From Candidatus Promineifilaceae bacterium (GTDB lineage Bacteria > Chloroflexota > Anaerolineae > Promineifilales > Promineifilaceae): DNA of 59,264 bases. A program made the translations under genes and the position numbers. Below the pieces are notes generated by a model. It had not been told where the DNA came from and made no database searches. It saw nothing but the letters and a program-made list of their open reading frames with translations. Below are positions 1 through 59,264 of the stretch, piece after piece (positions within the stretch are counted from its first letter, which is position 1; each line of letters opens with the position of its first letter). The stretch spans positions 1-59,264 of the forward strand of contig JBNKZT010000001.1 of the NCBI GenBank assembly GCA_050301775.1, in the 5' to 3' direction.

Positions 1-394
1 TCATTTGCTGAAAATCTGCACCGCTCACTTCCAGAAGCAGCTCGCCGGCGACGTTGTGGAATTGCACTTTTTTCAAATTTGGCGTCAGCAGTGTCCAATG
101 GTCATGGGTGACGATGAACACGTCCGCACCGGAGCGGGCCAGCGTACCCAATCCTTCACCGACCGTGTATTGGATCGCCTTTTGCCCATCTACCGTCACG
201 ACCTGCGGGTTGCCCAGCTCATCGGTCAAAGGTGCGAACAAGGTCATACGTACCGTCGCCGCCAGGATTTGCTGTTGGGCGTCCGCGTCAATCGTGTATG
301 AGGAAGCCAGAACTGTTTTGTTGAATTTCGTGAAGCCTAACGCGCTACTCACTACTAAAAGGGTTAAACTGCTGAACAAGATTTTGCGTAACAT
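1..394 (-). CDS. Secreted hypothetical protein, 5' part only (gene runs past the left window edge)
   Basis: Own minus-strand translation from ATG at 394-392: MLRKILFSSLTLLVVSSALGFTKFNKTVLASSYTIDADAQQQILAATVRMTLFAPLTDELGNPQVVTVDGQKAIQYTVGEGLGTLARSGADVFIVTHDHW... It is stop-free to the edge and has a signal-peptide-like N-terminus. It is missing from the ORF track only because no stop lies in the window. Confidence 0.5.
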   Translation of the reverse strand, partial: MLRKILFSSLTLLVVSSALGFTKFNKTVLASSYTIDADAQQQILAATVRMTLFAPLTDELGNPQVVTVDGQKAIQYTVGEGLGTLARSGADVFIVTHDHWTLLTPNLKKVQFHNVAGELLLEVSGADFQQM

Positions 395-470
395 TTTCCA
401 CCTCGCTACTTGCTGCGCCGCTGTCCCTTGCAGCGCTGTGAAATCTCTTGTTCGCAGTTTCGTTTGTCCC

Positions 471-669
471 CGTCATCAGCCTGTCTCAGTGGCGTCAACG
501 GTTCAAAACTTAGCGTCAACAAATCGTCAACATTTCAACTCTTTCGTTATGTAAAATTTAGGGCGGCATTGTTGGACGTGACTGGTTGACGATTTAGCGT
601 CGCCAACCGTCAACATTTTGGGGAAAATCGTCAACAAAGCCTCAAAACCGGTCATTTTTATGCTAGGAT
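471..669 (+). promoter_or_regulatory. Array of phased CGTCAAC heptamer repeats ending at an extended -10 (TGCTAGGAT, 661-669); candidate SARP operator/promoter in the divergent intergenic region
   Basis: Forward copies start at 471 (CGTCATC), 493, 514, 525, 608 and 629 (all CGTCAAC). Degenerate copies start at 640 (CCTCAAA) and 650 (GGTCATT). An inverted copy GTTGACG lies at 585-591. Spacings are 22, 21, 11, 83, 21, 11 and 10 nt, roughly multiples of one helical turn. The last repeat ends about 8 nt before TAGGAT. Confidence 0.5.
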
Positions 670-779
670 AAGGGTAGGAGTCATCCACGAATTCGACCCG
701 CCCCTGGAACCGGGTTCACGCTGACATCTCCAACATCATTCAGATAAATGGTCTGCCTGCCAGGCAGCCTGACAGGCAA

Positions 780-3700
780 ATGGACAGGAGGTCAATCATG
801 GGTACGTTGTCCTTGGCTCTTCTTGGTCGGTTTCAGGCTGTGTTAGATGGTGAAGTGCTGGCAGGTTTTCGCACCAACAAAGTCCAGGCGCTGCTCATCT
901 ACCTGGCGGTAGAACGAGCCAATCCCCATCGCCGCGAGTCGTTGATGACGCTGCTGTGGCCGGGCATGCCGGAACGCTCGGCGCGGCATAATTTGCGGCA
1001 GGTTCTCTATCATCTGCGGCGAGAAATTCCCGATTTGTCTCCTAAAGATAGTTCAGGTCAGACAACGGCCGTTCCCCTAATCCTGGCCAACCGTCAGACC
1101 ATCCAACTAAATCCACTGGCTGACGTTTGTATTGACACAGCCCAATTCGAAGCCCATTCGCGACAGGCACAAACCCATGACCACCTCGATTTGCTTACCT
1201 GCCGCGCCTGCCATCAGGAATTGGAAACGGCCGTCGCCCTCTACCGCGGCGATTTCCTGGCCGACTTCTACCTGGACGACAGCAACGAATTCGAAGAGTG
1301 GGCTGAGACTTCCCGGCAAACTTACCGCCGCAAGGCCCTCGATGCGCTGGAAACCTTGACAACCGTCAACACCCGCCAGAAAGCGTTCACTGAAGCCCGA
1401 GCCTTTGCCGAGCAGCAGCTTGAAATAGATGAACTGCGCGAAAGCGGCTACCGGCAGCTCATGGAAATTATGGCTCTCAGCGGGCAGCGTGAAGAAGCGT
1501 TGGCGCTGTACGAAACTTGCCGCCGCCGCCTGGCTGAAGAGTTGGGAATGGCCCCCACCACCCAAACGACGGCGCTTTACGAAAGAATCCAGGCCGGCGA
1601 CTTACGCTTTGACGTCCCCCAGGTTCAGGGTGTGCGCGGCTACGACCTCAAAGAAGAAATCGGCGAGGGCGCTTTTGGGACAATTCACCGGGCCATTCAA
1701 CCTGGCATTGGCCGGGAAGTGGCCGTGAAGGTAATTCGTCGCCGTTACGCCAATGATCCCGAATTTATCCGTCGTTTTGAGGCCGAAGCTCAAACCATCG
1801 CCCGCCTGGAACATCCCTACATTGTCCCCCTCTACGATTATTGGCGCGATCCGGAAGGGGCGTACCTGGTTATGCGCCTGCTGCGCGGCGGCAATCTGCT
1901 GGCTTCTTTAGAGGGCGGCCCCTGGGGAGTTGAGCCGACACTCAAGATGCTGGATCAGATCGCTTCTGCGCTGGCGGCTGCCCACCGGCAAGGCATCGTG
2001 CATCGGGACATCAAACCGGCCAACGTTCTTTTCGACGAAGCTGGCAATGCTTACTTGTCGGATTTTGGTATTGCCAAGAATTTGACGGGCGATATGCGGT
2101 TAACGGCCGTTGGCGCCATCATGGGCACACCCGACTACATCTCCCCGGAACAGCTACTCAACGATCCGGTCAGCCCTCAATCCGATCTGTACAGCCTGGG
2201 GGCTGTCTTGTACGAGACGTTGACCGGCGAAAAGCCCTTCCCCGATGCCTCCCTGGCCATGATCATCCAAAAGCAGCTCAACGAACCCATCCCACCGGTC
2301 AGCGCCAGCCGTTCCGATTTACCACGCCAGATTGACGCTGTCATCCAACGGGCGACGGCCAAAAGACCGCGTGATCGTTACCCGGATGTATTGGCAATGG
2401 CAGAAGCGTTCCGCCAGGCGACCCGTGAAAATGGGGTTCATGTGGCAGGGGTAACGCCTGTGCTGAGCGAAGTCGGAGTAGCCGTTCCCGCCGCAGTAGA
2501 CATCATCAACCCCTACAAAGGGCTGCGCGCCTTCCAGGAAGCCGACGCCGCCGACTTTTACGGCCGTGAAACCCTGGTCGAGCAATTAGTGGCCCGACTG
2601 GCCGAAAGCCGTTTCCTGGCCGTCGTCGGTCCCAGCGGCAGCGGCAAATCCAGCGCCGTTAAAGCCGGCCTGATTCCCGCCTTGCGTGAGGGGGCCGTCC
2701 CTGGTTCCGAAAAATGGTTTGTGGCCGAGATGGTTCCCGGCAGTTACCCGATGGAGGAATTAGAACTGGCCCTGCTGCCCATCGCCGTCGATCCGCCGCC
2801 CAGCCTGCTGGAACCGCTGCAAAAGGATAAGCGGGGGCTGCTGCGCACCGTCCGCCGCATTTTGCCCGATGAAGATGGGGCGCAATTGCTCCTGGTTGTG
2901 GATCAGTTTGAAGAGTTGTTTACGCTGGTCGAGGACGAAGCCCGACGGGTACATTTCTTAGACAGCCTGCTGGCTGCCCTCGCTGCGCCGCGCACGCCCC
3001 TGCGGGTGGTGGTGACGCTGCGGGCCGATTTCTATGATCGGCCGTTACAGTACCAGCCTGTTGGCGAACTGTTCAAACAGCATACGGAAGTCGTCCTGCC
3101 GCTAACCCAGGACGAATTGACCTGGGCCATTCAAGAACCGGCGCGGCGGGTTGGCGTGGGCATCGAAGAGGGCGTTGTAGCGGCGATGACTACCGACGTC
3201 GTTGACCAGCCCGGCGCACTGCCCCTGCTGCAATATGCGCTGACGGAGCTATTTGAGGAACGCCAGGATCATACGATGAGCCTGGCAAGTTACCGGGCGA
3301 TTGGCGGCGTGCCCGGCGCATTGGCCCAGCGCGCCGAGGAACTGTACGCCAATCTGGACTCAACCGAACAGGAGCGAGTTCGCCAGTTGTTCTTACGCCT
3401 GGTGACATTGGGCGAGGGCGTGGAAGATACACGGCGACGCGTGCGGTTGTCAGAGTTGGAAGCGTTATCGGTAAACGGTAAACAGTTATCGGTAAACGGT
3501 GATCGGTTGTCGGAAAACGAATTTCCGATTACTGATAGCCGATTACCGCTCACCAAATTCGGGGAACACCGTATCCTCACCTTTGACCGCGACCCCAACA
3601 CGCGAGAACCCACCGTCGAAGTCGCTCACGAAGCGCTGCTGCGCGAATGGCCCCGGCTGCGCCGCTGGCTGGATCAGAGCCGTGATGACATACGGATTCA

Positions 3701-6125
3701 GCGTCGTCTGGCTGCCGCCGCCGCCGAATGGGAACAATCCAGCCGCGATGAAGGATTTTTACTGCGCGGTTCACGGCTGGACTTGTTTTCCGGCTGGACG
3801 GCCGTTTCCGATCTGGCACTGACTCACGTTGAAAAAACATTTCTCGACACCTGCCTGACCGCCCAGCAAGAACGCCGGACAGCAGAAACAGCCCGGCAGC
3901 AGCGTGAACTGGAAACGATCCGGCAGTTGGCCGAAACTGAAAAAGTACGCGCCGATGAACAAACTCGATCGGCCAATCAACTGAGGCGGCGAGCGGTTTA
4001 TTTATCGGGTGCATTACTTATCGCTGCTGTTCTAGCTGTCGCCGCCCTCCTGTTTGGGCGGCAGGCCACAAAAAACGAACGGCTCGCTACCTCGCGGGAA
4101 TTGGCTGCCGCCGCACTCAACAACCTGGATGTAGACCCGGAGCGCAGTGTGTTATTAGCGCTACAGGCATTGTCAGAAGCCTACACAATCGAGGCCGAAA
4201 ATGCTCTACACGAGTCCATCCCAGAGTTGCATCTGTTGCACACATTAACCGGCCATACCGAAATGGTTGAGAGCGTCGCTGTTAGCCCGGATAGAACACG
4301 CCTGGCTTCAGCCAGCGACGATGGAATCGTAAAAGTATGGGATGTTACGACGGGCCAAGAACTATTGAGTTTCTCCACTTATCACACCGGAATTTCTATC
4401 TTCGGCCTCGCCTTCAGCCCGGATGGCGCCCGCATGGCGACAGCCAGCGATGATCAGACTGCGAAAGTGTGGGATACCACCACCGGTGAGCAATTGCTCG
4501 TCATCAATCATGGCGCTCCCCTCAGCGCCGTCGCCTTTAGCCCAGATGGGAAGCGCCTGGCAACGGCTGGCGCCGACGCAACAGCGAGGGTATGGGACAG
4601 CGCCTCCGGTCAACAACTGCTCGTCCTGACCGGCCATGCCGAGGCAATCCGGGCTGGCAGCATTCATCCCGGAGGTGTCATTGGCGTCATCTTCGCGCCA
4701 AACGGAAAACGACTCGTGACAGCCGGCGCCGATGGGACAGCCAGACTCTGGGATGCTGAGAATGGACAGGCGTTGTCGGTCATATCTGGCCATACGAACG
4801 AGATCTACATTGCCCTGAGTCCGGACGGGCAACGCTTGTTGACGGGTGGCTACGATGGATTCGTGAAGCTATGGGATATTTCGTCGGGGGCGGAGACAAA
4901 TGAGCCGTTGGTCATCATCAACCACGAGCAGTCGGCCCGCGCTGCCGCCTTCAGCCCAGATGGAACGCGGGTTGCGGCTGCCAGTCAGGATGGCGCGGCC
5001 AGGGTCTGGGATGCCGCTTCAGGGAGGAGATTGCTTACGCTGGTAGGCCACGCTGGAGTGGTGGACGATCTGACTTTTACGCCCGATGGGACGCGCCTGG
5101 TCACCGTGGGCGAAGACAAGACCGTAAAAGTATGGGACCTCGCCCCTGGAAGAGAATTGCTCACTCTGGTCGGCGCCGGGTCGCCTGCATACAGTCCTGA
5201 CGGGAAACGCCTGGCCACGGCTCAATCCGATGGTACGGTCGCTGTTCGGGACAGCACAACCGGTCAGGAGTTGCTAATCCTGGCAGGACACCCTGAATTT
5301 GGGACATTCCACATCGCATTTAGCCCAGACGGCAAACATCTGGCCACGGCCAGTTGGGACAGAACCGCCAAGCTGTGGGACGCTTCGACCGGCTCAGAGC
5401 TATTCACCTTGTCCGGCCACACGGATTACATCTTTAACGTTTCTTTCAACCAGGACGGGACCTGCCTGGTGACATCCAGCGCGGATGGGACAGCCAAAGT
5501 GTGGAATACGCGCACAGGCCAGGAGTTGTTTACGCTGCTTGGCCACAGCCGCTGGGTCCAGGGCGCCGCTTATAGCCCGGATGGGATGCGTATCGCAACG
5601 AGCAGCGACGATGGGACGGCGAGGATCTGGGATGCAGTTACTGGTCAAGAGTTGGAGACTCTGAACGCTGGGGTTAGTCTGTCAAGTATTGCGTTTAGCC
5701 CGGATGGTAAGCTCCTGGCGGCGGGCAGAAGTGATGGCAAGGTAATGGTCTGGGATATCTCGGGGGCAGAAAGCCGCGTGATAACGACTTTATCCGGTCA
5801 TTCAGCGTTTATCGGTCGCATTACTTTCAGTCCAGATGGCGCTCGCCTGGCCACGTCCAGCTTCGACGGGACAGCCAAGTTATGGGATCTGAAGACAGGT
5901 CAGGAGTGGCTGACGCTCTCTGCTGAGGACCCCCTGGACACGGCAATATTCAGCCCGGACGGGACACGATTGGCTACAGGTGCCTTTGGCGGTGGGCAGG
6001 TGAGGGTTTATGTCTTGGAACTTGAAGACCTGGTGGAACTGGCCCAGTCGCGTATCACTCGCTCGCTGACGGATGAGGAATGCCAGCGTTTTTTGCATGT
6101 GGCGGTGTGTCCGGAACGGCCGTAA
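780..6125 (+). CDS. Giant multidomain signalling protein: SARP (wHTH+BTAD) + Ser/Thr protein kinase + STAND-type P-loop NTPase + TM helix + 14 WD40 repeats
   Basis: Track ORF of 1781 aa. SARP/BTAD: LLGRFQAVLDGEVL..FRTNKVQALLIYLAVE, YRGDFLADFY, ESGYRQLMEIMALSGQREEALALYETCRRRLAEELG. Kinase: VAVKVI, HRDIKPANVLF, DFGIAK, GTPDYISPEQ. P-loop: VVGPSGSGKSS with LLLVVDQFEE. TM: AVYLSGALLIAAVLAVAALLFG. There are 14 units of the type SPDG..LATAS.DGTAKVWD. The start could also be the ATG at 798. Confidence 0.92.
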   Translation: MDRRSIMGTLSLALLGRFQAVLDGEVLAGFRTNKVQALLIYLAVERANPHRRESLMTLLWPGMPERSARHNLRQVLYHLRREIPDLSPKDSSGQTTAVPLILANRQTIQLNPLADVCIDTAQFEAHSRQAQTHDHLDLLTCRACHQELETAVALYRGDFLADFYLDDSNEFEEWAETSRQTYRRKALDALETLTTVNTRQKAFTEARAFAEQQLEIDELRESGYRQLMEIMALSGQREEALALYETCRRRLAEELGMAPTTQTTALYERIQAGDLRFDVPQVQGVRGYDLKEEIGEGAFGTIHRAIQPGIGREVAVKVIRRRYANDPEFIRRFEAEAQTIARLEHPYIVPLYDYWRDPEGAYLVMRLLRGGNLLASLEGGPWGVEPTLKMLDQIASALAAAHRQGIVHRDIKPANVLFDEAGNAYLSDFGIAKNLTGDMRLTAVGAIMGTPDYISPEQLLNDPVSPQSDLYSLGAVLYETLTGEKPFPDASLAMIIQKQLNEPIPPVSASRSDLPRQIDAVIQRATAKRPRDRYPDVLAMAEAFRQATRENGVHVAGVTPVLSEVGVAVPAAVDIINPYKGLRAFQEADAADFYGRETLVEQLVARLAESRFLAVVGPSGSGKSSAVKAGLIPALREGAVPGSEKWFVAEMVPGSYPMEELELALLPIAVDPPPSLLEPLQKDKRGLLRTVRRILPDEDGAQLLLVVDQFEELFTLVEDEARRVHFLDSLLAALAAPRTPLRVVVTLRADFYDRPLQYQPVGELFKQHTEVVLPLTQDELTWAIQEPARRVGVGIEEGVVAAMTTDVVDQPGALPLLQYALTELFEERQDHTMSLASYRAIGGVPGALAQRAEELYANLDSTEQERVRQLFLRLVTLGEGVEDTRRRVRLSELEALSVNGKQLSVNGDRLSENEFPITDSRLPLTKFGEHRILTFDRDPNTREPTVEVAHEALLREWPRLRRWLDQSRDDIRIQRRLAAAAAEWEQSSRDEGFLLRGSRLDLFSGWTAVSDLALTHVEKTFLDTCLTAQQERRTAETARQQRELETIRQLAETEKVRADEQTRSANQLRRRAVYLSGALLIAAVLAVAALLFGRQATKNERLATSRELAAAALNNLDVDPERSVLLALQALSEAYTIEAENALHESIPELHLLHTLTGHTEMVESVAVSPDRTRLASASDDGIVKVWDVTTGQELLSFSTYHTGISIFGLAFSPDGARMATASDDQTAKVWDTTTGEQLLVINHGAPLSAVAFSPDGKRLATAGADATARVWDSASGQQLLVLTGHAEAIRAGSIHPGGVIGVIFAPNGKRLVTAGADGTARLWDAENGQALSVISGHTNEIYIALSPDGQRLLTGGYDGFVKLWDISSGAETNEPLVIINHEQSARAAAFSPDGTRVAAASQDGAARVWDAASGRRLLTLVGHAGVVDDLTFTPDGTRLVTVGEDKTVKVWDLAPGRELLTLVGAGSPAYSPDGKRLATAQSDGTVAVRDSTTGQELLILAGHPEFGTFHIAFSPDGKHLATASWDRTAKLWDASTGSELFTLSGHTDYIFNVSFNQDGTCLVTSSADGTAKVWNTRTGQELFTLLGHSRWVQGAAYSPDGMRIATSSDDGTARIWDAVTGQELETLNAGVSLSSIAFSPDGKLLAAGRSDGKVMVWDISGAESRVITTLSGHSAFIGRITFSPDGARLATSSFDGTAKLWDLKTGQEWLTLSAEDPLDTAIFSPDGTRLATGAFGGGQVRVYVLELEDLVELAQSRITRSLTDEECQRFLHVAVCPERP
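3464..3552 (+). repeat. Palindromic repeat element inserted in frame inside the SARP-kinase-STAND gene
   Basis: Direct repeat GTTATCGGTAAACGGT x2 (3464-3479 and 3485-3500), followed by an imperfect hairpin GGTAAACGGTGATCGGTTGTCGGAAA / TTTCCGATTACTGATAGCCGATTACC. It is translated as LSVNGKQLSVNGDRLSENEFPITDSRLPL, a low-complexity stretch between otherwise ordinary protein sequence. Confidence 0.55.
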
Positions 6126-9140: not shown

Positions 9141-9247
9141 GCGGGGAATTTCTTTTCAAAACTGGGCCGTAATTTAATGTCCGGGTTATTCCTTTCGGTG
9201 TTTGGATTTTTTGTCGCTTACCTGGATGAACGGCCGTTTTGACGAAC

Positions 9248-17834: not shown

Positions 17835-18036
17835 AGATGGCATATTGCCATGTAGATAACCGATCTAATTTATGAATCGCTATCAAGTGTATAGAGTAAT
17901 CTATACACCACCAATTAAGTTTAATAGAAATTTTCAAGGAGGTGAGGCCTGACAATTAGCTGAATTTTAGAAGATAATGGTTTACGCTTATTTAATTTTC
18001 TCAAAAATCCATTAATTTGGAGGAGGTTTAGAAAAA

Positions 18037-19923: not shown

Positions 19924-19950
19924 TCAGGCTCTGATTTAGCCTTTTTCTTT

Positions 19951-19978
19951 GGGGGAGCAGTTACAAAACTGCTCCCCC
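19951..19978 (+). terminator. Perfect 10-bp stem-loop just after the SBP gene (possible attenuating terminator or mRNA stabiliser)
   Basis: GGGGGAGCAG ttacaaaa CTGCTCCCCC. No clear T-run follows, so this is a stem-loop rather than a canonical intrinsic terminator. Confidence 0.45.
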
Positions 19979-22413: not shown

Positions 22414-22428
22414 AGATTTGCCCGTTAG

Positions 22429-39110: not shown

Positions 39111-39131
39111 ATTGGGTGGTGAACGGCCGTA

Positions 39132-41716: not shown

Positions 41717-41802
41717 GATATTTCTCCGCTCGATAGATGTATGTAATATACATCTGTTGCGCCGGGGTGTCAACGGCCGTAACCACCCTCTCCCCACTAA
41801 AC

Positions 41803-41838
41803 AAAAAAAGAGGAACGGTTTACGGCCGTTCCTCTTTT
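41803..41838 (-). terminator. Intrinsic terminator downstream of the DUF11-protein gene (A-run/T-run on both sides)
   Basis: AAAAAAAG AGGAACGG tttacgg CCGTTCCTCT TTT. On the minus strand the hairpin is followed by a run of 7 T. The loop/stem contains an ACGGCCGT copy. Confidence 0.75.
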
Positions 41839-49923: not shown

Positions 49924-51819
49924 TTACGGCCGTTCCGGGACAACAAGCGACAGCCACTCTGTATTGACAAAACTACCATCCTCAACAACCTGATACATGC
50001 TCACCCGCACCGCTACCGGATTGGCGCCGGGCGGCACGTTCAATCGGTAAAAACTGCGGACTACTTCCCCGGTTTGCCAGCGCGATGTGGGGTAACGGCC
50101 GGCTACCGGATGATTACGATCGGCCTGAGTCAGAATATCCTGCGGGCCGGTAGGTGGGTCTTGGGCTACTAAATGGATGGCAATGCTGTAATCGGACAAG
50201 CCAGCGCGTTGGGCCTGCCAATCAACTGACAACAACAGGGCATCGGCCGATTCCCAGGTTAGTTCGGCCTGTTGGATAAGGACGCCATTGCCTAAATCGA
50301 ACAGAGCCGTCTCCGGCGCAACCGGTTCAATCAGCGGTTCCGTTTTGATTTCCACCAATCCCGGCGCAGCTACCGCCAGATAAACATCACTGCCCAACAC
50401 CTCTTCCCACCAGTCAACAGGTCGTTGGAAAAACGTTTCGCGGGGTGTGATTAAACGGCGACCTTCGGCGATATAGTCTTTGAAGGGGGCATTATGGTCA
50501 ACCAGCGTTACGCCTTCCAGTTGACCCCGGTAAGCCTGGGCATAAGCCGCACCCCAAAAATTATGGCCCCACAAAATCATGAGGATAGTTGGCTCATCAG
50601 GGTTTGCAATCTGGTCGGCGACGGCAATGGAGGCTTCCACGGTGCGATCTTTGGTGATGGCCACAACTTGCGGATAGTTGCGCCAGCCGGCATAGAGCGT
50701 ACCAATGGCCAACAGGATCAGGAGTATGTGGCCAAAGATTGGCCGCCAATTATAGAAGCGGGAGATGAGCAAGGCCCATCCCAAACCGGTAAACATGGCC
50801 ACGGGCAGTTTGACGGCCAGCAGGGCATCGCCGACAAAGCCAGCGTAGATGAGCAGCGGCACGACGGCGAAGGGCAGCCAGATGAAATGGGCGGCGGGCA
50901 TGATGCGCCAGTAGGCGCGGCGCGGTTTGTTGATGAAAAACAGGCCGCCCAGTCCCAGGCCAATCAGGAGCAGTGGCAAATCGTCGTTGAGGATTTGCAA
51001 GGTGACGCGCCCTTTTTCCAGCCAGGTGTAACCGGTAGTGGAGCGCTCGGTGAAACGACCGGCTTTGATGTTGAGGAAAGCGCGCCAGAAACCATCCCAG
51101 GTGCTGGTGTTGCCGAACGTCCAATCGGCGCCCATCCATTCACGCAGCGGCATGTAAAAATAGAGCAGCAGGGCGATGAGGCTGAGGCCAATGAGGGCCG
51201 GCAGGTTTTTCCAGACGATACGCCAACGGGGAAAGACGATGAGAAATACGCCGGGCAGGACGCCCATGACGGAACGGCCGTGAAACACACCCTGGCTCAA
51301 AAAAAAGGTCAACCATAGCAAGTCGCGCCGCTCCCCGGTGCGGTCGAAGCGCAGAGCAAAGTAGAAAATGGCGGCGACAAACATCATGCTCATGCTGTGG
51401 ACTTCGGCCAGGGAGGAATCGATCCAGACGGAGGTGGCGACGGCGAAGGTGATGGGTCCCAGCACGGCCGGCAGGCGTCTGGCGCCCAGTTCGAGGGCGG
51501 TTTGGGTGAGGAATACGGCCGTTACCGCTCCCCACAACAGTGACACCAACGATGACCCCAACGCCGGTTTGATGCCCACCCATCGCAAAATGGTTACGAT
51601 GAAGGAGCCGGTGATGGAGTAGAGCGGGTACCCGGTGAAATGGATCGTGCCCCAGCGAGGTAAGGCGTTCTGGATTTCACCGACGTCGGTGACGTAGGGA
51701 TGGCTGCCGCCGTTGATGTGGGTTTGCAGGGTGATGGTGAAGAGGACGGCCGTTACCAATCCAGCCAATAATGCTATATTCCATGAATAACGATTTCCCT
51801 GTTTATTAAACAGCATCAA
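49924..51819 (-). CDS. DUF2723 / TMEM260-like polytopic membrane glycosyltransferase-fold protein
   Basis: Track ORF of 631 aa. N-terminal VTDVGEIQNALPRWGTIHFTGYPLYSITG, about 11 TM helices, and a C-terminal soluble domain. Confidence 0.75.
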   Translation of the reverse strand: MMLFNKQGNRYSWNIALLAGLVTAVLFTITLQTHINGGSHPYVTDVGEIQNALPRWGTIHFTGYPLYSITGSFIVTILRWVGIKPALGSSLVSLLWGAVTAVFLTQTALELGARRLPAVLGPITFAVATSVWIDSSLAEVHSMSMMFVAAIFYFALRFDRTGERRDLLWLTFFLSQGVFHGRSVMGVLPGVFLIVFPRWRIVWKNLPALIGLSLIALLLYFYMPLREWMGADWTFGNTSTWDGFWRAFLNIKAGRFTERSTTGYTWLEKGRVTLQILNDDLPLLLIGLGLGGLFFINKPRRAYWRIMPAAHFIWLPFAVVPLLIYAGFVGDALLAVKLPVAMFTGLGWALLISRFYNWRPIFGHILLILLAIGTLYAGWRNYPQVVAITKDRTVEASIAVADQIANPDEPTILMILWGHNFWGAAYAQAYRGQLEGVTLVDHNAPFKDYIAEGRRLITPRETFFQRPVDWWEEVLGSDVYLAVAAPGLVEIKTEPLIEPVAPETALFDLGNGVLIQQAELTWESADALLLSVDWQAQRAGLSDYSIAIHLVAQDPPTGPQDILTQADRNHPVAGRYPTSRWQTGEVVRSFYRLNVPPGANPVAVRVSMYQVVEDGSFVNTEWLSLVVPERP

Positions 51820-52524: not shown

Positions 52525-53019
52525 TTACTTTTGATGAATCTGCCGGTAGCCGCGATTCCAGTAAATGAGCGGCGCTTCGTCGGGGCGGGGAACGGCGCTG
52601 GCTTGAACCAGCCCCAGATAGATGGTGTTGTTGCCGGTATTCAGGCGATCATAGATGGTGCAGTCCAGCCAGGCCAGCGCATTTTTGAGGATGGGGGCGC
52701 CGGTAACGGCCGTACCCCAATCCCCTATCCCAAACCGATCTTCATCCTTAATCCAGGCAAAACGGTTCGATAATTCCGTTTGGTCATGCGCCAGAATATT
52801 GACGGCAAAGACCGTACCTTCCTGTTCCAGCATATCATAAGCATTGTTCCGATGGTCAATCGTAATCATGATTAGCGGCGGTTTAGGCGAAATAGATGAA
52901 AAAGCTGACACTGTCAGGCCGTGGGGAACTTCGTTCCTCGGTGTTTTGACGGTGACAATGGTCACGCCGGCGGGGAAATGGCGCAGGGCTTCCCGGTAAT
53001 CTTCAGAACCTATAGTCAT
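52525..53019 (-). CDS. Flavin reductase (FMN-binding split-barrel, HpaC-like)
   Basis: Track ORF of 164 aa. ALRHFPAGVTIVTV..HGLTVSAFSSISPKPPLIMITI. Confidence 0.88.
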   Translation of the reverse strand: MTIGSEDYREALRHFPAGVTIVTVKTPRNEVPHGLTVSAFSSISPKPPLIMITIDHRNNAYDMLEQEGTVFAVNILAHDQTELSNRFAWIKDEDRFGIGDWGTAVTGAPILKNALAWLDCTIYDRLNTGNNTIYLGLVQASAVPRPDEAPLIYWNRGYRQIHQK

Positions 53020-54011
53020 AACGTTTCTCTTCCTTTATTGTTTTGGTCAGGCAGCCCTAAAAACGTGCGAACGACCGCCGCTATATCTGTTAAATCGTCG
53101 ATTTGACCGGCCCAATCCGCATGTTGCGGGCCAACGAGTATCGTCGGCACTGGATTGCGTGTGTGCTGGCGCTGTGATTTGTCTTCAATATTGCCGTGGT
53201 CGCTGGTGATGATCAGCAGGCCATGTTCATCGTCCCAGGTGTCCAAAAGGCCGCCCAGCGCGCCATCGATCATCTCCAGATGGACCACAGCCTGGGCCAG
53301 CGACCCGCGATGGCCGCTGCGGTCGCTGGGCCAATGTTCGAAGAAGCTGAAATGATGGGTTTGGGCAATGGCGGCAATACGTCCCCCGGCCTCGGCCAGA
53401 GTCATGATGGGGATGTCGTCGTAGCCCAGATGTTCCTGCCAGGCCTGACCGGTAAAACCAGGGCTGACCGCACGGCCGTTCCGCAAATCAGCCACATCCA
53501 TCAACGACAATCCGGCGCTGGTCGCCGCCAGAGGGACGCTGGAAAACAGCCGTTTACCGCTGTTGATGCCGTCAAAATAACCCTGTGGATAGGGGGTGAT
53601 GAGCGCCGCCCGGCCACCGGCAGCAGTCACGTCGTGAAAAAGGGTTCCCTGGTGGATGATGTCGGCAACGGCCGTATTCGGTTTTGGTCCGTAATGTTCG
53701 CCCACCAACTGGGGCACGTTGCGCCCGGTCAAAATGGCCGCCTGCCCGGTAGCGCTCTGCGGCTTGCCTGGCAGTCCTAAATTGGGGTCGGTGGGGATGA
53801 GGCTGGCCCGGTTGGTGATGATACGGTTTTTCCCTTGCAAAAACCAGTTGTCGCCCAGCAAATTAGTCAGGTTGGGGAGAACGGCCGTGACAAACGGGTT
53901 CACATCCGGGTCCGGCCCGCCCAGTCCAACGCCATCCATGAAAAAGAGCAGAACGTGGCGGGAGATTAGAGGTTGGAGATTGGAGATTGGAGATTGTTTA
54001 TTCTGTTTCAA
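53016..54011 (-). CDS. Alkaline-phosphatase-superfamily 'metalloenzyme' protein (phosphopentomutase / cofactor-independent PGM-like)
   Basis: Track ORF of 331 aa. LLFFMDGVGLG near the N-terminus, FFEHWPSDRSGH, and ITSDHGN. The first 17 codons (QSPISNLQPLIS) are encoded by a TTGGAGA tandem array, so the true start is uncertain. Confidence 0.7.
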   Translation of the reverse strand: MKQNKQSPISNLQPLISRHVLLFFMDGVGLGGPDPDVNPFVTAVLPNLTNLLGDNWFLQGKNRIITNRASLIPTDPNLGLPGKPQSATGQAAILTGRNVPQLVGEHYGPKPNTAVADIIHQGTLFHDVTAAGGRAALITPYPQGYFDGINSGKRLFSSVPLAATSAGLSLMDVADLRNGRAVSPGFTGQAWQEHLGYDDIPIMTLAEAGGRIAAIAQTHHFSFFEHWPSDRSGHRGSLAQAVVHLEMIDGALGGLLDTWDDEHGLLIITSDHGNIEDKSQRQHTRNPVPTILVGPQHADWAGQIDDLTDIAAVVRTFLGLPDQNNKGRETL

Positions 54012-54977: not shown

Positions 54978-55466
54978 TTACCTTAGGGTAGAAATTTTTT
55001 GAGTTACATCGTCAGGCGACAACGAACCGACATTGCGCCAGACTTCATCGCCCGATTTGTCGAACAGGATAAACGTGGGCGTAAAGCGGAAATTAAGCCG
55101 TTGTAACAAATCAGCGGCGCTGTCGTCTTGAACGTTGAGGCGTACGACCTGTACCGCGTCACCCCACTCTGCTTCTAGCCCATCAACGATGGGCCTGGCC
55201 TGGCGGCAGGCCGCTCAATAATCGGAATACAATTCCAGGAAAACGGGCTGGCCGGGATCGGCCAGCAGCATTTCCACCTCATTGGCCGCAGTCCCTTTGG
55301 TTTCGGTTTGGAGCAGAAAGTAACCCACGATAATCAGGGCCAGCAGCCCGCCGATGAGGGACAGACGACTGAGTAACGGCCGTTGCCGCCACACCACCGC
55401 CAATATCAACAAGCCCAATGGCAAAACCAGCGAGAACACGGCCGAATATTGATTAACGATTTGCAT
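54978..55466 (-). CDS. Membrane-anchored thioredoxin-fold protein with in-frame TGA at 55217-55215 in the redox motif (U-A-A-C): predicted selenoprotein, or a Cys-to-stop pseudogene
   Basis: Track ORF 55215..55502 ends ...PGQPVFLELYSDY at a TGA. My in-frame continuation is stop-free for 79 codons: AACRQARPIVDGLEAEWGDAVQVVRLNVQDDSAADLLQRLNFRFTPTFILFDKSGDEVWRNVGSLSPDDVTQKISTLR, then TAA at 54980-54978. This is the remainder of a thioredoxin fold (cis-Pro TPT). The likely start is ATG 55466 (MQIVNQYSAVF, TM helices). Confidence 0.6.
55178..55194 (-). promoter_or_regulatory. Candidate bacterial SECIS hairpin 20 nt downstream of the in-frame UGA
   Basis: Minus-strand RNA: UGA GCGGCCUGCCGCCAGGCCAG GCCCAUC GUU GAUGGGC. 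It has a 7-bp stem and a G/U-containing apical loop. A second small hairpin GGCCUG CCGC CAGGCC lies directly after the UGA. Confidence 0.4.
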
Positions 55467-55591: not shown

Positions 55592-56023
55592 ATGAACGAC
55601 GAGTCCCTGATCATCATTAACGAACAGGTCAGCATTCCGGCGGCCGAACTGCAATTTCGCTTTTCCACCAGCAGCGGGCCGGGCGGCCAACACGTCAACC
55701 GCTCGGCGACACGGGTAACGCTGCTGTTTGACGTGGCCCAGTCGCCCAGCCTGGACGAGACCGTGCGCGCCCGGCTGCTGCAAAAGCTGGCCCCGCGCCT
55801 GGATAAGGAAGGCGTTCTGCACATCGACGTTCAAGAATCACGCAGCCAGTACCGGAATCGGGAAACGGCCGTGCTTCGCTTCCAACTCATCCTGGCCAAC
55901 GCCCTCAAACAGCCCAAAAAACGGCGCAAAACCAAACCCAACCGGGCCGCCATCGAGCGCCGCCTGACCGAAAAAAAGCAGCACAGCCAGCGCAAGCAAG
56001 AGCGCCGGCAAAGCTGGGAATGA
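55592..56023 (+). CDS. arfB: Alternative ribosome-rescue factor ArfB (peptidyl-tRNA hydrolase, GGQ class)
   Basis: Track ORF 55565..56023. The likely start is ATG 55592 (MNDESLIIINEQV). GGQ motif SSGPGGQHVNRSATRV and a basic C-terminal tail KKRRKTKPNRAAIERRLTEKKQHSQRKQERR. Confidence 0.9.
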   Translation: MNDESLIIINEQVSIPAAELQFRFSTSSGPGGQHVNRSATRVTLLFDVAQSPSLDETVRARLLQKLAPRLDKEGVLHIDVQESRSQYRNRETAVLRFQLILANALKQPKKRRKTKPNRAAIERRLTEKKQHSQRKQERRQSWE

Positions 56024-56122: not shown

Positions 56123-56776
56123 ATGACTATTATTGACATTAGCCGCAATTTGGAAAAAGGGATGGCCGTCTGGCCGGGAGATACGCCCTATCATTTAGAA
56201 ATCGTGTTGGATCGACAGCACGGTAATGTGGTCAACCTGACAACGTTAACCCTGAGCGCCCACACCGGCAGCCACGCCGACGCACCGCGCCATTTTACGG
56301 ATGAGGGGTTGACAATGGAGCAAGTGGATTTACGGCCGTATTGGGGCCCCGCCCTCGTTGTTACCGTCAGCAAAACCGCCGGACCGCTGCTGCCGGCCGA
56401 TTTCGCCGCCACTGATTTGCGCGGCGCGGAACGGCTGCTGGTGCGCACGCCGCTGCAAGGGCTGCCCTTCGACCAGTTCCCCGACGCTGTGCCTCATCCC
56501 AGCCCGGAACTGGCCGACTTTTTGGGTGAGTTAGGCATCCTGCTCTACGGAACCGACACGCCTTCGATGGATGCCATCGACAGCAAAGACCTGCCCGGCC
56601 ATAATGCTTTGCTGCGCAACGGGATTGCTATTTTGGAAGGATTAGATTTGTCGGGGGCGGGGGACGGCCGTTACGAACTCGTTGCTCTCCCCCTAAAAAT
56701 TGTGGGCGGGGATGGCAGTCCGGTGCGGGCGGCGTTGAGGAGTTGGCAAGTTGGCGAGAAAGCGAGTGACGAGTGA
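56123..56776 (+). CDS. Cyclase-family protein (arylformamidase / kynurenine formamidase-like)
   Basis: Track ORF of 217 aa. Metal-binding motif HTGSHADAPRHF, plus GTDTPSMD and LPLKIVGGDGSPVRA. Confidence 0.85.
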   Translation: MTIIDISRNLEKGMAVWPGDTPYHLEIVLDRQHGNVVNLTTLTLSAHTGSHADAPRHFTDEGLTMEQVDLRPYWGPALVVTVSKTAGPLLPADFAATDLRGAERLLVRTPLQGLPFDQFPDAVPHPSPELADFLGELGILLYGTDTPSMDAIDSKDLPGHNALLRNGIAILEGLDLSGAGDGRYELVALPLKIVGGDGSPVRAALRSWQVGEKASDE

Positions 56777-56828: not shown

Positions 56829-57074
56829 ATGACACAGCGAGAAAAACGGCTCGCCAAAATTCGCAACAATCCGAAAAATGTTCGTTTTGACGATCTGAAT
56901 CGCGTGCTGCGCGATTATGGATTTGAGCGGCGACAACCAAAAGGTGGCTCCAGTCATTATTTCTATTTTCTTGGCGACAGGCGCTTGACCATTCCGATGA
57001 AACGGCCGTTTGTGAAAGCCATTTACGTCAAGCAAGTTTTGAGCATCCTGGAGGAAATTGATGATGAACGATAA
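56829..57074 (+). CDS. hicA: HicA-family mRNA interferase toxin
   Basis: Track ORF of 81 aa. RFDDLNRVLRDYGFERRQPKGGSSHYFY. Confidence 0.85.
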   Translation: MTQREKRLAKIRNNPKNVRFDDLNRVLRDYGFERRQPKGGSSHYFYFLGDRRLTIPMKRPFVKAIYVKQVLSILEEIDDER

Positions 57075-57435: not shown

Positions 57436-57702
57436 CAACAATTTCTCTGAACTGAAATGAGCCGTTAACGTGTATTGTTTACGGCCGTGTTCTGGCTAGT
57501 CAAACATAAGAAGCGTGCCAGTATGAGCGATCAGTAATCCGAACAATCTGGAACCAGCGACGAGATTTGCGTCGATAATATCGAGGATAGCAAAGTTGTT
57601 GCGGTTGGCTGGCACAACGGCCGTTTCCCCACCCCCAGGCTGCTTTTTTTTATCTTTCACATCAGGGATTTACACAGCCCATTTTGGAGGTTAATCTCAA
57701 CT

Positions 57703-58252: not shown

Positions 58253-58258
58253 GTTCTT

Positions 58259-59212
58259 TTACGGAAGTACGTTCACCGCATTGCGTGTTTCCACACCGCG
58301 CAGGCAGTCTAATACCTTGCTGACGATTTGGGTGGACACATTGCGCTGTGCTTCGGCTGTACTGGCTCCCAGGTGGGGGGTGTGCAGCACGTTGGGCAGA
58401 CCAAGTAAGGGATTGTCGGCGGCCGGTGGTTCGCTGGTGTACACATCCAATGCTGCTGCTTTCACATGCCCGTTTTGTAACGCATCAGCCAGGGCGGCTT
58501 CGTCAATTAGTTTGCCACGAGCGACATTGACGATGACAACGCCTTTTTTCATCTTTTTGATGGCCGAGTCGTTGATCATTTGGGTGGTTGCGGGGGTAAC
58601 GGCCGTATGCAATGTCAAATAATCAGCCTGTGACAAAACCTGGTCCAGATCAACTAATGACACATCCAACGCAGCCGCCTCTTCCGCCTTCACAAACGGA
58701 TCATGGGCCAGCACCGTCATGCCAAATGCTTTGGCTCGTTCGGCAACCAGGCGCCCAATCCGGCCCAAGCCGACAATGCCCAACACCTTGCCGAATAGTT
58801 CCGTCCCGGCAAACTGCGCCCGGTTCCATTCACCGGCGGCCAGCGAATTATGTGCCGGAACGGTGTACCGGGTGACGGCCAGCATAAGGGCCATCGTCTG
58901 TTCGGCCGTGGCTACACTGTTCGATCCTGGTGTGTTCATCACGACAACGCCATGATTGGTTGCGGCGGCGATGTCGATATTGTCTACGCCAATCCCGGCC
59001 CGGCCTATCACCTTGAGCTTTTTACCAGCGGCAATGACATCGGCGTCAGGCCGCGTATCGCTGCGAATAATCAGTCCATCGTACTCCGGGATAATGGCCA
59101 GCAATTCTTCTTTGCTCAAGCCAGTTTTCATGTCGTAGGCGGCATCGGCCGCTTTGTCCAGCATGTCCAGTCCGGCAGCGCCTAATTTATCAGAAACGAG
59201 AATTCGATACAT
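58259..59212 (-). CDS. serA: D-3-phosphoglycerate dehydrogenase, short form without ACT/ASB domains
   Basis: Track ORF of 317 aa. MYRILVSDKLG..., the NAD-binding motif GIVGLGRIGRLVA, and catalytic R/E/H positions (NVARG, HLGAST). Confidence 0.85.
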   Translation of the reverse strand: MYRILVSDKLGAAGLDMLDKAADAAYDMKTGLSKEELLAIIPEYDGLIIRSDTRPDADVIAAGKKLKVIGRAGIGVDNIDIAAATNHGVVVMNTPGSNSVATAEQTMALMLAVTRYTVPAHNSLAAGEWNRAQFAGTELFGKVLGIVGLGRIGRLVAERAKAFGMTVLAHDPFVKAEEAAALDVSLVDLDQVLSQADYLTLHTAVTPATTQMINDSAIKKMKKGVVIVNVARGKLIDEAALADALQNGHVKAAALDVYTSEPPAADNPLLGLPNVLHTPHLGASTAEAQRNVSTQIVSKVLDCLRGVETRNAVNVLP

Positions 59213-59223
59213 TGTATTTCCCC

Positions 59224-59264
59224 TTACTGTGCCAAAAATTCGTCAATCGCCGCGAACAGTTCTT
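59224..59264 (-). CDS. 3' end of an unidentified gene entering from the right window edge
   Basis: Minus-strand reading ..ELFAAIDEFLAQ, then TAA at 59226-59224. Only 13 codons are visible. Confidence 0.25.
   Translation of the reverse strand, partial: ELFAAIDEFLAQ

Follow-up and report, generated by a model that had tools for sequence, protein, structure and literature searches.

A 59,264-bp stretch of contig JBNKZT010000001.1 from a Candidatus Promineifilaceae bacterium (Chloroflexota), referred to here in its entirety as the window, carries one palindromic octamer, ACGGCCGT, over and over, and the question it raises is whether this word is favoured as DNA or is a by-product of the proteins encoded around it. 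A preliminary description of the sequence had claimed about 70 copies; exact matching returned 70 (1.18 per kb, about once per 0.85 kb), and each of the 46 example coordinates listed there fell within 0–9 nt of a real site. ACGGCCGT tops all 8-mers of the window, with its own overlaps as runners-up and the next palindromic octamer at 7 copies. Dinucleotide-preserving shuffles averaged 1.19 copies and never exceeded 4, and Markov models of order 0–5, trained with the motif masked, predicted 1.15–1.91, in keeping with the one or two copies first estimated. The observed/expected (O/E) ratio was 37–61 in all of these non-circular models, so the excess that had been claimed holds under higher-order models as well. 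The order-6 (maximal-order) expectation of 54.9 was dropped as circular; its heptamers lie mostly inside the octamer (70 of 85 ACGGCCG and 70 of 84 CGGCCGT) and, because they are nearly all parts of ACGGCCGT, this estimate does not refute the excess. Among the 130 CGGCCG hexamers of the window, 70 are enclosed by the outer pair A..T, and each other flank combination accounts for at most 7. The octamer is GC-rich and palindromic, it is the most over-represented 8-mer, and its density lies within the 0.3–2.7 copies per kb of words of the highly iterated palindrome (HIP) type. It is almost certainly such a word, acting at the level of DNA, and not a by-product of codons or peptides.

Codon phases, compatible peptides and gaps

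Genes were called with a simple procedure based on the longest open reading frame (ORF), which gave 47 ORFs (a few small ones doubtful) and 91% coding DNA; two assignments of sites to genes were adjusted using public gene calls and the ORF list. The preliminary description had placed the word in all codon phases, on both coding strands and in intergenic DNA, and the counts bear this out. Read as ACG-GCC-GT (phase 0) it encodes T-A-V at about 39–41 sites, as xAC-GGC-CGT (phase 1) it encodes [YHND]-G-R at 10, and as xxA-CGG-CCG-Txx (phase 2) it encodes x-R-P-x at 13–14, with a further 6–7 sites in intergenic DNA. Density is similar in coding (1.19 per kb) and intergenic (1.11 per kb) sequence; enrichment in all three frames and in non-coding DNA is itself typical of HIPs.

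Peptides able to host the word are about 90% saturated with it overall and about 77–93% in each phase: ACGGCCGT encodes 41 of 44 T-A-V tripeptides (39 of 42 when two doubtful ORFs are omitted), 10 of 13 [YHND]-G-R and 12 of 13 x-R-P-[FLSYCW]. Codon usage predicts that about 14% of T-A-V tripeptides should use the codons of the word, versus the 93% seen. The tripeptide is itself five-fold more frequent than amino-acid composition predicts (44 vs. 8.7) and no other tripeptide in the sample is over-represented as strongly; V-A-T, A-T-V and similar ones occur at expectation. The peptides compatible with phases 1 and 2 are at baseline (13 vs. 10.8 and 13 vs. 11.2 expected). In these two phases every synonymous opportunity has been taken by the word, and in phase 0 about 35 extra T-A-V tripeptides have been created through amino-acid replacement. 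The alignment of uvrC shows replacements that give sites, from K-A-I/V to T-A-V and from G-K to G-R. A coding artefact, in which a favoured tripeptide or codon pair drags the DNA word along, would fit the concentration of about 60% of genic copies in a single phase (ACG-GCC-GT, T-A-V), but it is ruled out, at negligible residual probability, by the codon choice within T-A-V, the 80–90% saturation of the remaining two phases, the intergenic density, the control tripeptides, and the inflation of P-A-G or A-A-A instead in sister lineages (see below). Because saturation extends to all phases and T-A-V is itself inflated, a favoured peptide does not account for the word; the earlier proposal of selection on the DNA word rather than on a peptide agrees with these results.

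Placement along the window is near-Poisson. The spacing of the 70 sites does not differ from an exponential distribution (Kolmogorov–Smirnov P = 0.14), and the index of dispersion is 1.35 at 1 kb (P = 0.04) and about 1.1 at 2–3 kb. The motif-free stretches reported as patchiness in the preliminary description are all real, but only the 7,060-bp gap (16560–23620) is unusual for 70 random points (P ~0.01); gaps of 2–3 kb arise in about 90% of random placements, and a lack of sites in mrr, a gene of 0.9 kb, carries no significance by itself. The opp genes of this gap, uvrC and mrr hold no peptide able to host the word, and none of the seven compatible but "unconverted" peptides lies within them. 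The oppF-A-B-C coding regions lack ACGGCCGT in all four genomes compared. Foreign DNA was rejected as the origin of the opp gap: its tetranucleotide distance is ordinary, equally low-GC neighbours are rich in the word, and three relatives share the synteny of the oppDFABC block, which is vertically inherited and highly conserved, with OppA homologs 88–89% identical. The fast-evolving TadG-like protein (best homolog 52% identical) carries six copies, and OppA and UvrC carry none. Site density tracks tolerance to amino-acid change, and the patchiness is mostly chance or protein constraint.

Dialects, orthologous sites, flanks and phages

Loci of relatives (L-numbers) were collected around uvrC, which occupies 39132–41006 (− strand) of the window, with up to 10 kb on each side. 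The best UvrC match is 83% identical, and the matches come from Chloroflexota, Anaerolineae metagenome-assembled genomes (MAGs) labelled Ardenticatenaceae or Candidatus Promineifilaceae. CGGCCG is the top palindromic hexamer at the uvrC loci of all close relatives examined, and what differs between them is its flanks. The A-type word ACGGCCGT is found in L001, L002, L003, L005, L013, L014, L016 and L017 at 0.8–2.15 per kb, and the six A-type sequences included in a UvrC tree form one clade. The C-type CCGGCCGG characterizes L004 (58 copies in 21.9 kb) and L007, and the G-type GCGGCCGC characterizes L008, from Ca. Trichofilum aggregatum (26 copies in 15 kb). L001 is mixed, with 18 A-type and 11 G-type copies. 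L012 and L009 over-use the hexamer only, without fixed flanks; in L012 it has 52 copies vs. 9 for the next palindromic hexamer. Distant Anaerolineales (UvrC identity ≤61%) have no such word. Other palindromic octamers were seen at moderate raw counts in some unrelated high-GC genomes (distant loci L049, L052, L074 and L079); examples are GGCGCGCC (12), GCCGCGGC (13), and CGTCGACG and CGACGTCG (14 each, Ilumatobacteraceae MAG).

Within a dialect, CGGCCG lies nearly always inside the cognate octamer (47 of 52 in L014, 25 of 29 in L003, 26 of 30 in L008), and the inflated tripeptide changes with it: T-A-V in L014 (27 vs. 3.2 expected), P-A-G in L004 (24 vs. 4.5) and A-A-A in L008 (17 vs. 3.1). 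Cross-controls between dialects are zero; among the 21 A-A-A tripeptides of L014, for instance, not one is encoded via GCGGCCGC. Over 229 pooled sites, variants one base away from the word are enriched at positions 1/8 (O/E 2.16), near expectation at 2/7 (1.07), and depleted at 3/6 (0.56) and 4/5 (0.66); one-off variants of the cyanobacterial word HIP1 are likewise biased to the outer positions (PMC4390886). Across relatives with UvrC identity of at least 70%, the word is a clade-wide trait with derivative palindromes and a constant core, as in HIPs. Sub-lineages have fixed different outer pairs, A..T, C..G or G..C, on the common core.

A comparison with orthologs, proposed in the preliminary description, was made with three syntenic loci found via OppA (L386, L387 and L388), which cover about 9–27 kb of the window. 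L386 keeps 13 of 15 window sites and has 2 of its own (control 8-mer identity 0.39, P = 0.002); L387 keeps 5 of 6 and has 1 of its own (0.31, P = 0.03); L388 keeps 6 of 12 and has 3 of its own (0.16, P = 0.02). A second, independent set (the window vs. L001, and L003 vs. L016) gave 8 of 11 kept vs. 0.17 for controls (P = 7e-5). On these small samples, orthologous copies are conserved above control octamers, another property of HIPs. The commonest internal one-off variant is ATGGCCGT, a C-to-T change at position 2 (20 vs. 10.8 expected).

The A and T noted next to the octamer in the preliminary description are present: A at −1 in 43 of the 70 window sites, T at +1 in 40 and both in 20. The resulting AACGGCCGTT, however, is the innermost piece of a far longer symmetric signal. 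At chromosomal copies each strand is G-rich 5′ of the site and C-rich 3′ of it, in a mirror-symmetric zone of about 60 bp; over 229 pooled sites the skew, (G−C)/(G+C), is 0.61 at −4..−3, 0.36 at −10..−5, 0.24 at −20..−11 and 0.15 at −30..−21. The skew is carried largely by third codon positions and is seen in every phase, at intergenic sites and in nine host loci taken singly. It is also present at GCGGCCGC in L008 and, more weakly, at CCGGCCGG. Half-cognate sites show it weakly, and it is about zero at non-cognate CGGCCG of the same genomes, at GGCC, GCCGGC, GGCGCC and TGGCCA, and at CGGCCG in distant genomes. HIP1 on the Nostoc plasmid pCC7120alpha (129 copies; a plasmid, not a chromosome) has a skew of 0.24 at −4..−3 and about zero beyond.

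The two flank arms vary independently (P = 0.23) and intergenic sites do not, as a rule, fold, so the flank skew reflects no requirement for a hairpin; independent arms fit half-site preferences rather than a hairpin. A hairpin or cruciform was rejected, since flank pairing is no more than composition predicts (P = 0.23) and five of the six intergenic sites tested fold no better than shuffles. Two readings suit the skew: an extended symmetric binding preference, or a process that begins or ends at complete sites and leaves its footprint there. A dispersed mobile or structured repeat (a repetitive extragenic palindrome [REP], bacterial interspersed mosaic element [BIME] or miniature inverted-repeat transposable element [MITE]) or a terminator element can be discounted with near certainty: one copy (41822) does lie in a terminator hairpin, but such classes have at least 20 conserved bp, a stem-loop or terminal inverted repeats, and mostly intergenic placement, whereas here just 8 bp are fixed, the flanks are alike in composition and not in sequence with arm complementarity at chance level, about 90% of copies are in genes, in frame and some in conserved genes, five of six intergenic copies are outside hairpins, and Rfam returned no matches. 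Mobile repeats and structured RNA are excluded.

The word also abounds in viral DNA. Scans of IMG/VR for three closely spaced copies of ACGGCCGT returned 54 loci, of which 35 were dense (at least 1 per kb and at least 6 sites; 304 kb), about 19 viral contigs with 1.3–3.7 copies per kb. With a control palindrome of matched composition, ACCGCGGT, the scan gave six loci, and their densities did not exceed 0.55 per kb. L094 (a 51-nt tandem repeat) and L088 are false positives of the cluster pattern; the 1,982-aa viral ORF at 3630–7083 of L094 consists of 51-nt tandem repeats, each with ccgACGGCCGTgtt, and is no instance of a dispersed word. Viral copies lie in portal, major-head, head-protease, tape-measure and minor-tail genes, as in tailed phages, and T-A-V is again inflated (172 vs. 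24 expected, 145 of them via ACGGCCGT). Phage densities of 1.3–3.7 per kb equal or exceed the 0.65–2.2 per kb of the hosts. Among 740 viral sites the flank skew is weak (0.22, 0.07, 0.04 and 0.05). A host restriction enzyme that cuts CGGCCG is unlikely because the presumed phages accumulate the site rather than avoid it. Viral scans for CCGGCCGG and GCGGCCGC were swamped by high-GC phages, with L188, L267 and L269 as the few moderate-GC, dialect-pure examples. The related viral contigs L084, L091 and L097 have a common site spacing (84, 55 and 57 bp, then about 1.7, 1.05, 0.35 and 0.95 kb), which in L084 and L091 falls within an ORF of about 2,100–2,200 aa; the word appears to be positionally conserved among phages too. 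In another octamer-dense viral contig, L101 (8314–10738), an MvaI/BcnI-family restriction endonuclease, an N4/N6 methyltransferase with an SPPY motif and an IS1595 transposase form a mobile restriction-modification cassette, probably of CCWGG/CCSGG type and unrelated to CGGCCG.

Known systems, mechanism and competing explanations

The closest precedent named in the preliminary description was HIP1, GCGATCGC, and the comparison is borne out in density, frames, conservation, dialects and one-off bias. Both words are GC-rich 8-bp palindromes that occur, and are conserved, in every frame as well as in non-coding DNA; the Chloroflexota word occurs at about 0.6–2.2 per kb and is enriched tens-fold. 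HIP1 occurs at 300–2700 copies per Mb, is 16–317-fold enriched and is conserved (PMC5861425). The core lies mostly inside the octamer in both cases, 47 of 52 in L014 vs. 129 of 137 CGATCG in Nostoc PCC 7120 plasmid alpha (positions 1–200000, L382–L385), where HIP1 has 129 copies in 200 kb. In both, sister lineages swap the outer pair and keep the core, as between GCGATCGC and TCGATCGA, and one-off variants concentrate at positions 1 and 8. The HIP1 core is methylated by orphan enzymes, and derivative palindromes are described (PMC4390886); alternate HIPs comprise TCGATCGA, GGGATCCC, GGCGCC, rCCGGy and GCsGC (Elhai 2015; PMC4390886). Methylated HIP1 boosts transformation and possibly recombination (bioRxiv 10.1101/2024.09.10.611283; 10.64898/2026.06.24.733823).

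There are differences as well. The host belongs to another phylum and the core, CGGCCG, is unrelated and lacks GATC, so the word is neither GCGATCGC nor a derivative of GATC or CGATCG. A methyltransferase is linked to HIP1, and none was found for the CGGCCG word in the loci screened. A skew zone of about 60 bp surrounds chromosomal copies of the CGGCCG word; for HIP1, as far as a plasmid (pCC7120alpha) can show it, no skew was seen beyond −4. High phage density was seen for the Chloroflexota word, and we know of no report of an equivalent for HIP1. The preliminary description knew of no account of the octamer, and literature matches to it were primers and constructs only. The literature search found no paper linking the octamer or a highly iterated palindrome with Chloroflexota, only cyanobacterial work under "iterated palindrome", and nothing relevant on CGGCCG methylation in metagenomes, including the Nanomotif preprint. 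The word is neither HIP1 itself nor cyanobacterial, and apparently represents an undescribed HIP-type feature in a second phylum.

Three other systems share some of these properties. Uptake signal sequences (USS) of Haemophilus and DNA uptake sequences (DUS) of Neisseria are asymmetric 9–12-mers with known receptor or uptake machinery, often paired in terminators. The Chloroflexota word resembles them in its frequency of about 1 per kb, its presence in all frames, peptide distortion, weaker extended flank preferences and dialects, but it is a perfect 8-bp palindrome with symmetric flanks and is abundant in phages; to our knowledge, no competence system has been reported for this clade. Chi, the site of RecBCD/AddAB, is a short, G-rich, species-specific word, enriched in the core genome of its host and different between lineages, a "self" mark that some phages acquire. 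The Chloroflexota octamer is likewise a short, lineage-specific word over-represented in the host genome and carried by phages. However, Chi is asymmetric, co-oriented with replication, few-fold enriched and present about once per 5 kb in E. coli, whereas the octamer is palindromic and has no orientation, is about 40–60-fold enriched and recurs about once per 0.85 kb, which sets it outside the Chi class. In the Dcm/Vsr system of E. coli, very-short-patch repair shifts the frequencies of words related to CCWGG, a modest effect on a 5-mer. A methyltransferase target whose one-off neighbours are shifted by mismatch correction is a possible model for drive on the octamer, but no Vsr-like or methyltransferase gene was found for it in the loci screened.

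A lineage-specific directional force acts on the DNA word in all resident replicons and is limited by protein constraint. The explanation to which we incline, by a little, is that of a HIP-type word with a methylated core and a symmetric reader that favours word-bearing DNA. By analogy with HIP1, the CGGCCG core would be the target of a resident, probably orphan, cytosine methyltransferase, a proposal we rate as evenly balanced, and the C-to-T variant ATGGCCGT gives a weak hint that the outer C of CGGCCG may be methylated. A dimeric protein acting in DNA repair, recombination or uptake would recognize the full, probably methylated octamer symmetrically; the mirror-symmetric flank signature of about 60 bp is carried only by complete octamers. 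Word-bearing DNA might be favoured via biased mismatch correction or gene conversion, via protection from degradation, or via preferential recombination or uptake, and the word would then spread on every replicon living in these cells, bounded by protein tolerance. A change of the outer base pair would create lineage "dialects". That the benefit lies in recombination, uptake or self-recognition is somewhat less likely than not. Elhai's G-mC mismatch-repair model was rejected as the source of the outer pair: it cannot explain A..T, since any GGCC already contains GC.

Several observations weigh against this explanation. A search for a methyltransferase or nuclease with CGGCCG-type specificity had been recommended at the outset, and its outcome was negative: no such enzyme, and no reader, was found in the window (Pfam, 46 ORFs), nor did motif regular expressions and targeted Pfam searches, the only screens applied there, turn one up in the related host loci (about 1.4 Mb) or the dense phage loci (about 0.3 Mb). 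Methyltransferase screens of the loci (C5 and N4/N6 motifs) returned only the MvaI/BcnI-type pair of L101 and a Dam-like enzyme in L132, neither of which fits CGGCCG. The excess of ATGGCCGT is modest and is accompanied by one decayed orthologous site, and ATG-GCC start contexts could inflate it. Retention at orthologous positions fits selection and continuing drive alike, and the flank skew is compatible with a binding preference as much as with a process footprint. The phage contigs were selected for clusters of the word, and their links to hosts are presumed.

The alternative that survives best, though it is rather unlikely, is that the word is a function-less by-product of a methyltransferase and of biased mismatch or very-short-patch-like repair that ratchets near-cognate sequences into the octamer; an "epiphenomenon" reading has been given for alternate HIPs (Elhai, PMC4390886). 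Accumulation bounded by protein tolerance (none in OppA and UvrC vs. six in the TadG-like protein), a one-off spectrum that matches a ratchet on the outer positions, the near-complete inclusion of CGGCCG in cognate octamers in L014, L003 and L008, and near-Poisson placement with no regular spacing are all consistent with it, and the repair bias would also reach phages that replicate in these cells. On the other side, phage densities that equal or exceed those of the hosts are unexpected for the shorter residence of phages unless the drive scales with recombination, and about 35 of the 44 T-A-V sites needed an amino-acid replacement, so the force competes with purifying selection. A point-mutation ratchet also predicts no 60-bp symmetric flank signature specific to complete octamers, and Xu et al. 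inferred selection on HIP1 from similar conservation (PMC5861425).

Two further alternatives are each clearly improbable. In the first, the word is a signal for DNA uptake or kin recognition: competence machinery would prefer the (methylated) word, and outer-base dialects would restrict exchange to kin. This agrees with about one copy per kb in all frames, with a proteome distorted at tolerant positions and with dialects on a constant core. Methylated HIP1 raises transformation up to >100-fold in Synechococcus PCC 7002 (bioRxiv 10.1101/2024.09.10.611283), and HIP1 abundance co-varies with DNA-uptake genes (bioRxiv 10.64898/2026.06.24.733823). It is opposed by the absence of competence genes from the sequence examined, by the asymmetry and 9–12-nt length of known uptake sequences, by lytic-type phage structural modules that are dense in the word without obvious gain from a tag, and by intergenic copies that are not inverted terminator pairs (one of the six tested is in a hairpin).

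The second, given the same low weight, is a palindromic, Chi-like "self" mark, by which a surveillance system would spare or recombine word-bearing DNA and degrade the rest, with phages mimicking the mark and hosts switching the outer pair. Such a mark would best account for phage density and dialect switching: it would explain why phages are as dense as or denser than their likely hosts, mostly without the flank signature, and also the rapid switching between sister lineages and the strength of the force. The 5′ flanks of the half-sites are G-rich, as in known Chi. A Chi-like role has been proposed for HIP1 (bioRxiv 10.1101/2024.09.10.611283). The properties of known Chi listed above (asymmetry, replication orientation, few-fold enrichment and one copy per 5 kb) argue against it, as do the selection of phage contigs for word clusters, their presumed host links, and the failure to find a cognate nuclease in the loci screened.

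A site for a nucleoid-organizing or segregation protein, with the flank skew as its extended footprint, has a still smaller share of the probability. The symmetric signature appears only with the whole octamer, and its halves are independent, as a dimer with extended contacts or spreading would produce; it is strong on chromosomes and weak on phages; a role in chromosome structure was proposed for HIP1 by Xu et al. (PMC5861425). Spacing, however, is near-random at the 1–3 kb scale, with 59 kb too short for the 10–90 kb periodicity of HIP1, and the high density in phage structural genes is left unexplained.

The favoured explanation, that of a methylated core with a symmetric reader, can be extended to the family. 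Filamentous Chloroflexota may share a "kin-DNA tag", a CGGCCG-based, probably methylated mark with the dialects ACGGCCGT, CCGGCCGG and GCGGCCGC, phage mimicry and a dimeric reader that would leave the strand-composition footprint of about 60 bp on chromosomes; this extension is speculative and we consider it unlikely.

Features along the window and their meaning

The copy that the preliminary description had placed in a terminator loop (41821) is the site at 41822, which lies in a real terminator hairpin. All sites are collected in Table 1.

Table 1. Copies of ACGGCCGT in the window, with one decayed copy and the longest motif-free stretch. Rows are exact copies of ACGGCCGT unless stated otherwise; phases are as defined in the text.
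Position	ORF (strand)	Phase and peptide, or setting	State in relatives
1065..1072	780-6125(+)	0, T-A-V	
1227..1234	780-6125(+)	0, T-A-V	
2103..2110	780-6125(+)	0, T-A-V	
2560..2567	780-6125(+)	1, Y-G-R	
3798..3805	780-6125(+)	0, T-A-V	
6116..6123	780-6125(+)	2, E-R-P-stop; overlaps stop codon	
6209..6216	6156-9140(+)	2, E-R-P-L	
9230..9237		intergenic between convergent ORFs, no hairpin	
10488..10495	M28 peptidase 9248-11254(-)	0, T-A-V	kept in L387, L388
11909..11916	11762-12274(-)	1, N-G-R	kept in L386, L388
12171..12178	11762-12274(-)	0, T-A-V	kept in L386, L388
13630..13637	GNAT 13540-14145(+)	0, T-A-V	kept in L386, L387, L388
13794..13801	GNAT 13540-14145(+)	2, I-R-P-L	kept in L386, L387; GCGGCCGT in L388
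13913..13920	GNAT 13540-14145(+)	1, Y-G-R	kept in L386, L387, L388
15465..15472		ATGGCCGT, decayed copy, C-to-T at position 2	ACGGCCGT at orthologous position in L386, L387
16043..16050	oppD-like 15826-16830(+)	1, N-G-R	kept in L386, L387, L388
16560..16567	oppD-like 15826-16830(+)	2, K-R-P-L	kept in L386 only
16568..23619	oppF-A-B-C and SH3 protein	longest motif-free stretch	
23620..23627	23374-25194(+)	0, T-A-V	kept in L386
23994..24001	23374-25194(+)	2, I-R-P-S	kept in L386
24124..24131	23374-25194(+)	0, T-A-V	kept in L386
24415..24422	23374-25194(+)	0, T-A-V	kept in L386; TCGGCCGT in L388
25760..25767	CAP-domain 25386-26081(-)	2, G-R-P-F	
26387..26394	26332-27159(-)	0, T-A-V	kept in L386
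26558..26565	26332-27159(-)	0, T-A-V	absent in L386
26618..26625	26332-27159(-)	0, T-A-V	ACGACCGT in L386
26696..26703	26332-27159(-)	0, T-A-V	kept in L386
28914..28921	DEAD-box helicase 27772-29073(+)	2, P-R-P-Y	
29320..29327	PpiC/SurA-like 29224-30195(+)	0, T-A-V	
29965..29972	PpiC/SurA-like 29224-30195(+)	0, T-A-V	
30087..30094	PpiC/SurA-like 29224-30195(+)	2, E-R-P-L	
30940..30947	30202-31026(+)	0, T-A-V	
31426..31433		intergenic, 84 nt upstream of ORF 31517; flanks GGGGGGGGGA / TGCACCCCC; small ORF 31263-31538 spanning it not called in public record	
31898..31905	TadG-like 31517-33844(+)	0, T-A-V	
33119..33126	TadG-like 31517-33844(+)	0, T-A-V	
33313..33320	TadG-like 31517-33844(+)	2, G-R-P-F	
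33398..33405	TadG-like 31517-33844(+)	0, T-A-V	
33527..33534	TadG-like 31517-33844(+)	0, T-A-V	
33600..33607	TadG-like 31517-33844(+)	1, N-G-R	
33995..34002	33893-37228(+)	0, T-A-V	
36890..36897	33893-37228(+)	0, T-A-V	
37237..37244		intergenic, right behind stop of ORF 33893-37228; no significant hairpin	
37419..37426	37296-39110(+)	0, T-A-V	
37677..37684	37296-39110(+)	0, T-A-V	
39123..39130		intergenic between convergent ORFs (37296-39110 and uvrC)	
41773..41780	RHH antitoxin-like 41426-41797(-)	2, L-R-P-L	
41822..41829		intergenic; 5′ arm and loop of intrinsic terminator hairpin 41806-41838, - strand (z = -4.96)	
41971..41978	41865-42536(-)	0, T-A-V	
43813..43820	42579-45152(-)	0, T-A-V	
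44664..44671	42579-45152(-)	1, Y-G-R	
44866..44873	42579-45152(-)	0, T-A-V	
45576..45583	ATP-grasp 45390-46646(+)	0, T-A-V	
45912..45919	ATP-grasp 45390-46646(+)	0, T-A-V	
46027..46034	ATP-grasp 45390-46646(+)	1, N-G-R	
47626..47633	YqeC/MobA-like 46672-48099(+)	0, T-A-V	
47758..47765	YqeC/MobA-like 46672-48099(+)	0, T-A-V	
49926..49933	49924-51819(-)	overlaps stop codon, R-P-stop type	
51274..51281	49924-51819(-)	1, H-G-R	
51515..51522	49924-51819(-)	0, T-A-V	
51746..51753	49924-51819(-)	0, T-A-V	
52706..52713	flavin reductase 52525-53019(-)	0, T-A-V	
53472..53479	53016-54011(-)	1, N-G-R	
53668..53675	53016-54011(-)	0, T-A-V	
53881..53888	53016-54011(-)	0, T-A-V	
55376..55383	small doubtful 55215-55502(-)	2, or intergenic	
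55865..55872	55565-56023(+)	0, T-A-V	
56332..56339	56123-56776(+)	2, L-R-P-Y	
56664..56671	56123-56776(+)	1, D-G-R	
57002..57009	small doubtful 56829-57074(+)	2, or intergenic	
57481..57488		intergenic between convergent ORFs	
57617..57624		intergenic between convergent ORFs	
58599..58606	58259-59212(-)	0, T-A-V	

In the L001 ortholog of the ATP-grasp gene, two of the three sites are kept and one reads ACGGCCGC; these states were not mapped to individual window coordinates.

Several genes in the window are of interest in their own right. ORF 780–6125 encodes a 1,781-aa protein with a Ser/Thr kinase, an nSTAND1 NTPase and about 12 WD40 repeats, and the neighbouring ORF 6156–9140 encodes a 994-aa BTAD/NB-ARC/TPR protein; the two are adjacent STAND-type signalling or defence-like giants. 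The region 31517–39110 (+) encodes three large, secreted-looking proteins of 775, 1,111 and 604 aa, of which only the middle one has a Pfam match (CARDB). This cluster is fast-evolving, lineage-specific and the richest in the octamer. Homologs of the 775-aa protein are often annotated as Tad/TadG-like; a protein search found none above 52% identity, and a search of metagenome contigs returned one 45%-identical fragment. A PIN-domain toxin and an RHH (CopG-like) antitoxin form a pair (41010–41797, −) directly downstream of uvrC, and the terminator at 41806–41838, just upstream of this pair, ends the preceding ORF 41865–42536. At 53998–54903 (−) lies a gene for a type IV (modification-dependent) restriction endonuclease of the Mrr family, with the domains Mrr_N and Mrr_cat; its GC content at third codon positions is 0.28 vs. 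0.45–0.76 in its neighbours, and the gene was probably acquired recently from outside. A methylation-dependent nuclease of this kind is an odd fit with the suspected dense cytosine methylation.

Accessory DNA was also seen in the relatives. Upstream of opp, the block is syntenic apart from small accessory genes that interrupt a conserved neighbourhood, at 1618–2574 and 3078–3879 of L388 and at 223–1048 of L386: a HepT-like/nucleotidyltransferase toxin–antitoxin pair and, in L388, also a PDDEXK/REase-ARP gene. Contig JBNKXX010000005.1 (GCA_050300535.1) encodes a window protein verbatim, and its stretch aligned to window positions 31000–31530 is identical except for a 133-bp insertion (at 31189/31190 of the window; L081 9540–9672). 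The insertion has a CTAG duplication at its ends and imperfect terminal inverted repeats, GCTTGTCGGAAAAG ... CTTTCTCCGACAGC, and resembles a MITE present in one assembly and missing from the other.

Some 30 years after HIP1 became known, its function is only now being approached via methylation-dependent effects on transformation. An independent HIP with an unrelated core in another phylum means that the phenomenon is not peculiar to cyanobacteria, and the dialect series, its mirroring in phages and the flank skew are features added beyond the likeness to HIPs. Any mechanism is constrained by the fact that the word reshapes proteins (a 5–8-fold excess of one tripeptide) and is also carried by phages, and the symmetric G/C skew, specific to chromosomes, represents a footprint of a new kind that may record a process acting at complete sites. 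Close lineages that differ in the outer pair, or that have the hexamer only, constitute a natural experiment in which comparison of gene content should reveal the methyltransferase and the reader, and methylation could be called from existing reads because several of the MAGs stem from Nanopore projects. In practice, the word is a sharp marker that could aid binning, tie phages to hosts and flag foreign DNA in a clade abundant in activated sludge and soil. If the kin-DNA tag were true, it would amount to a palindromic analogue of Chi or DUS that has no orientation and is engaged in an arms race, and an independent second origin of the HIP phenomenon, in which dialect variation would let comparative genomics find the writer and reader proteins.

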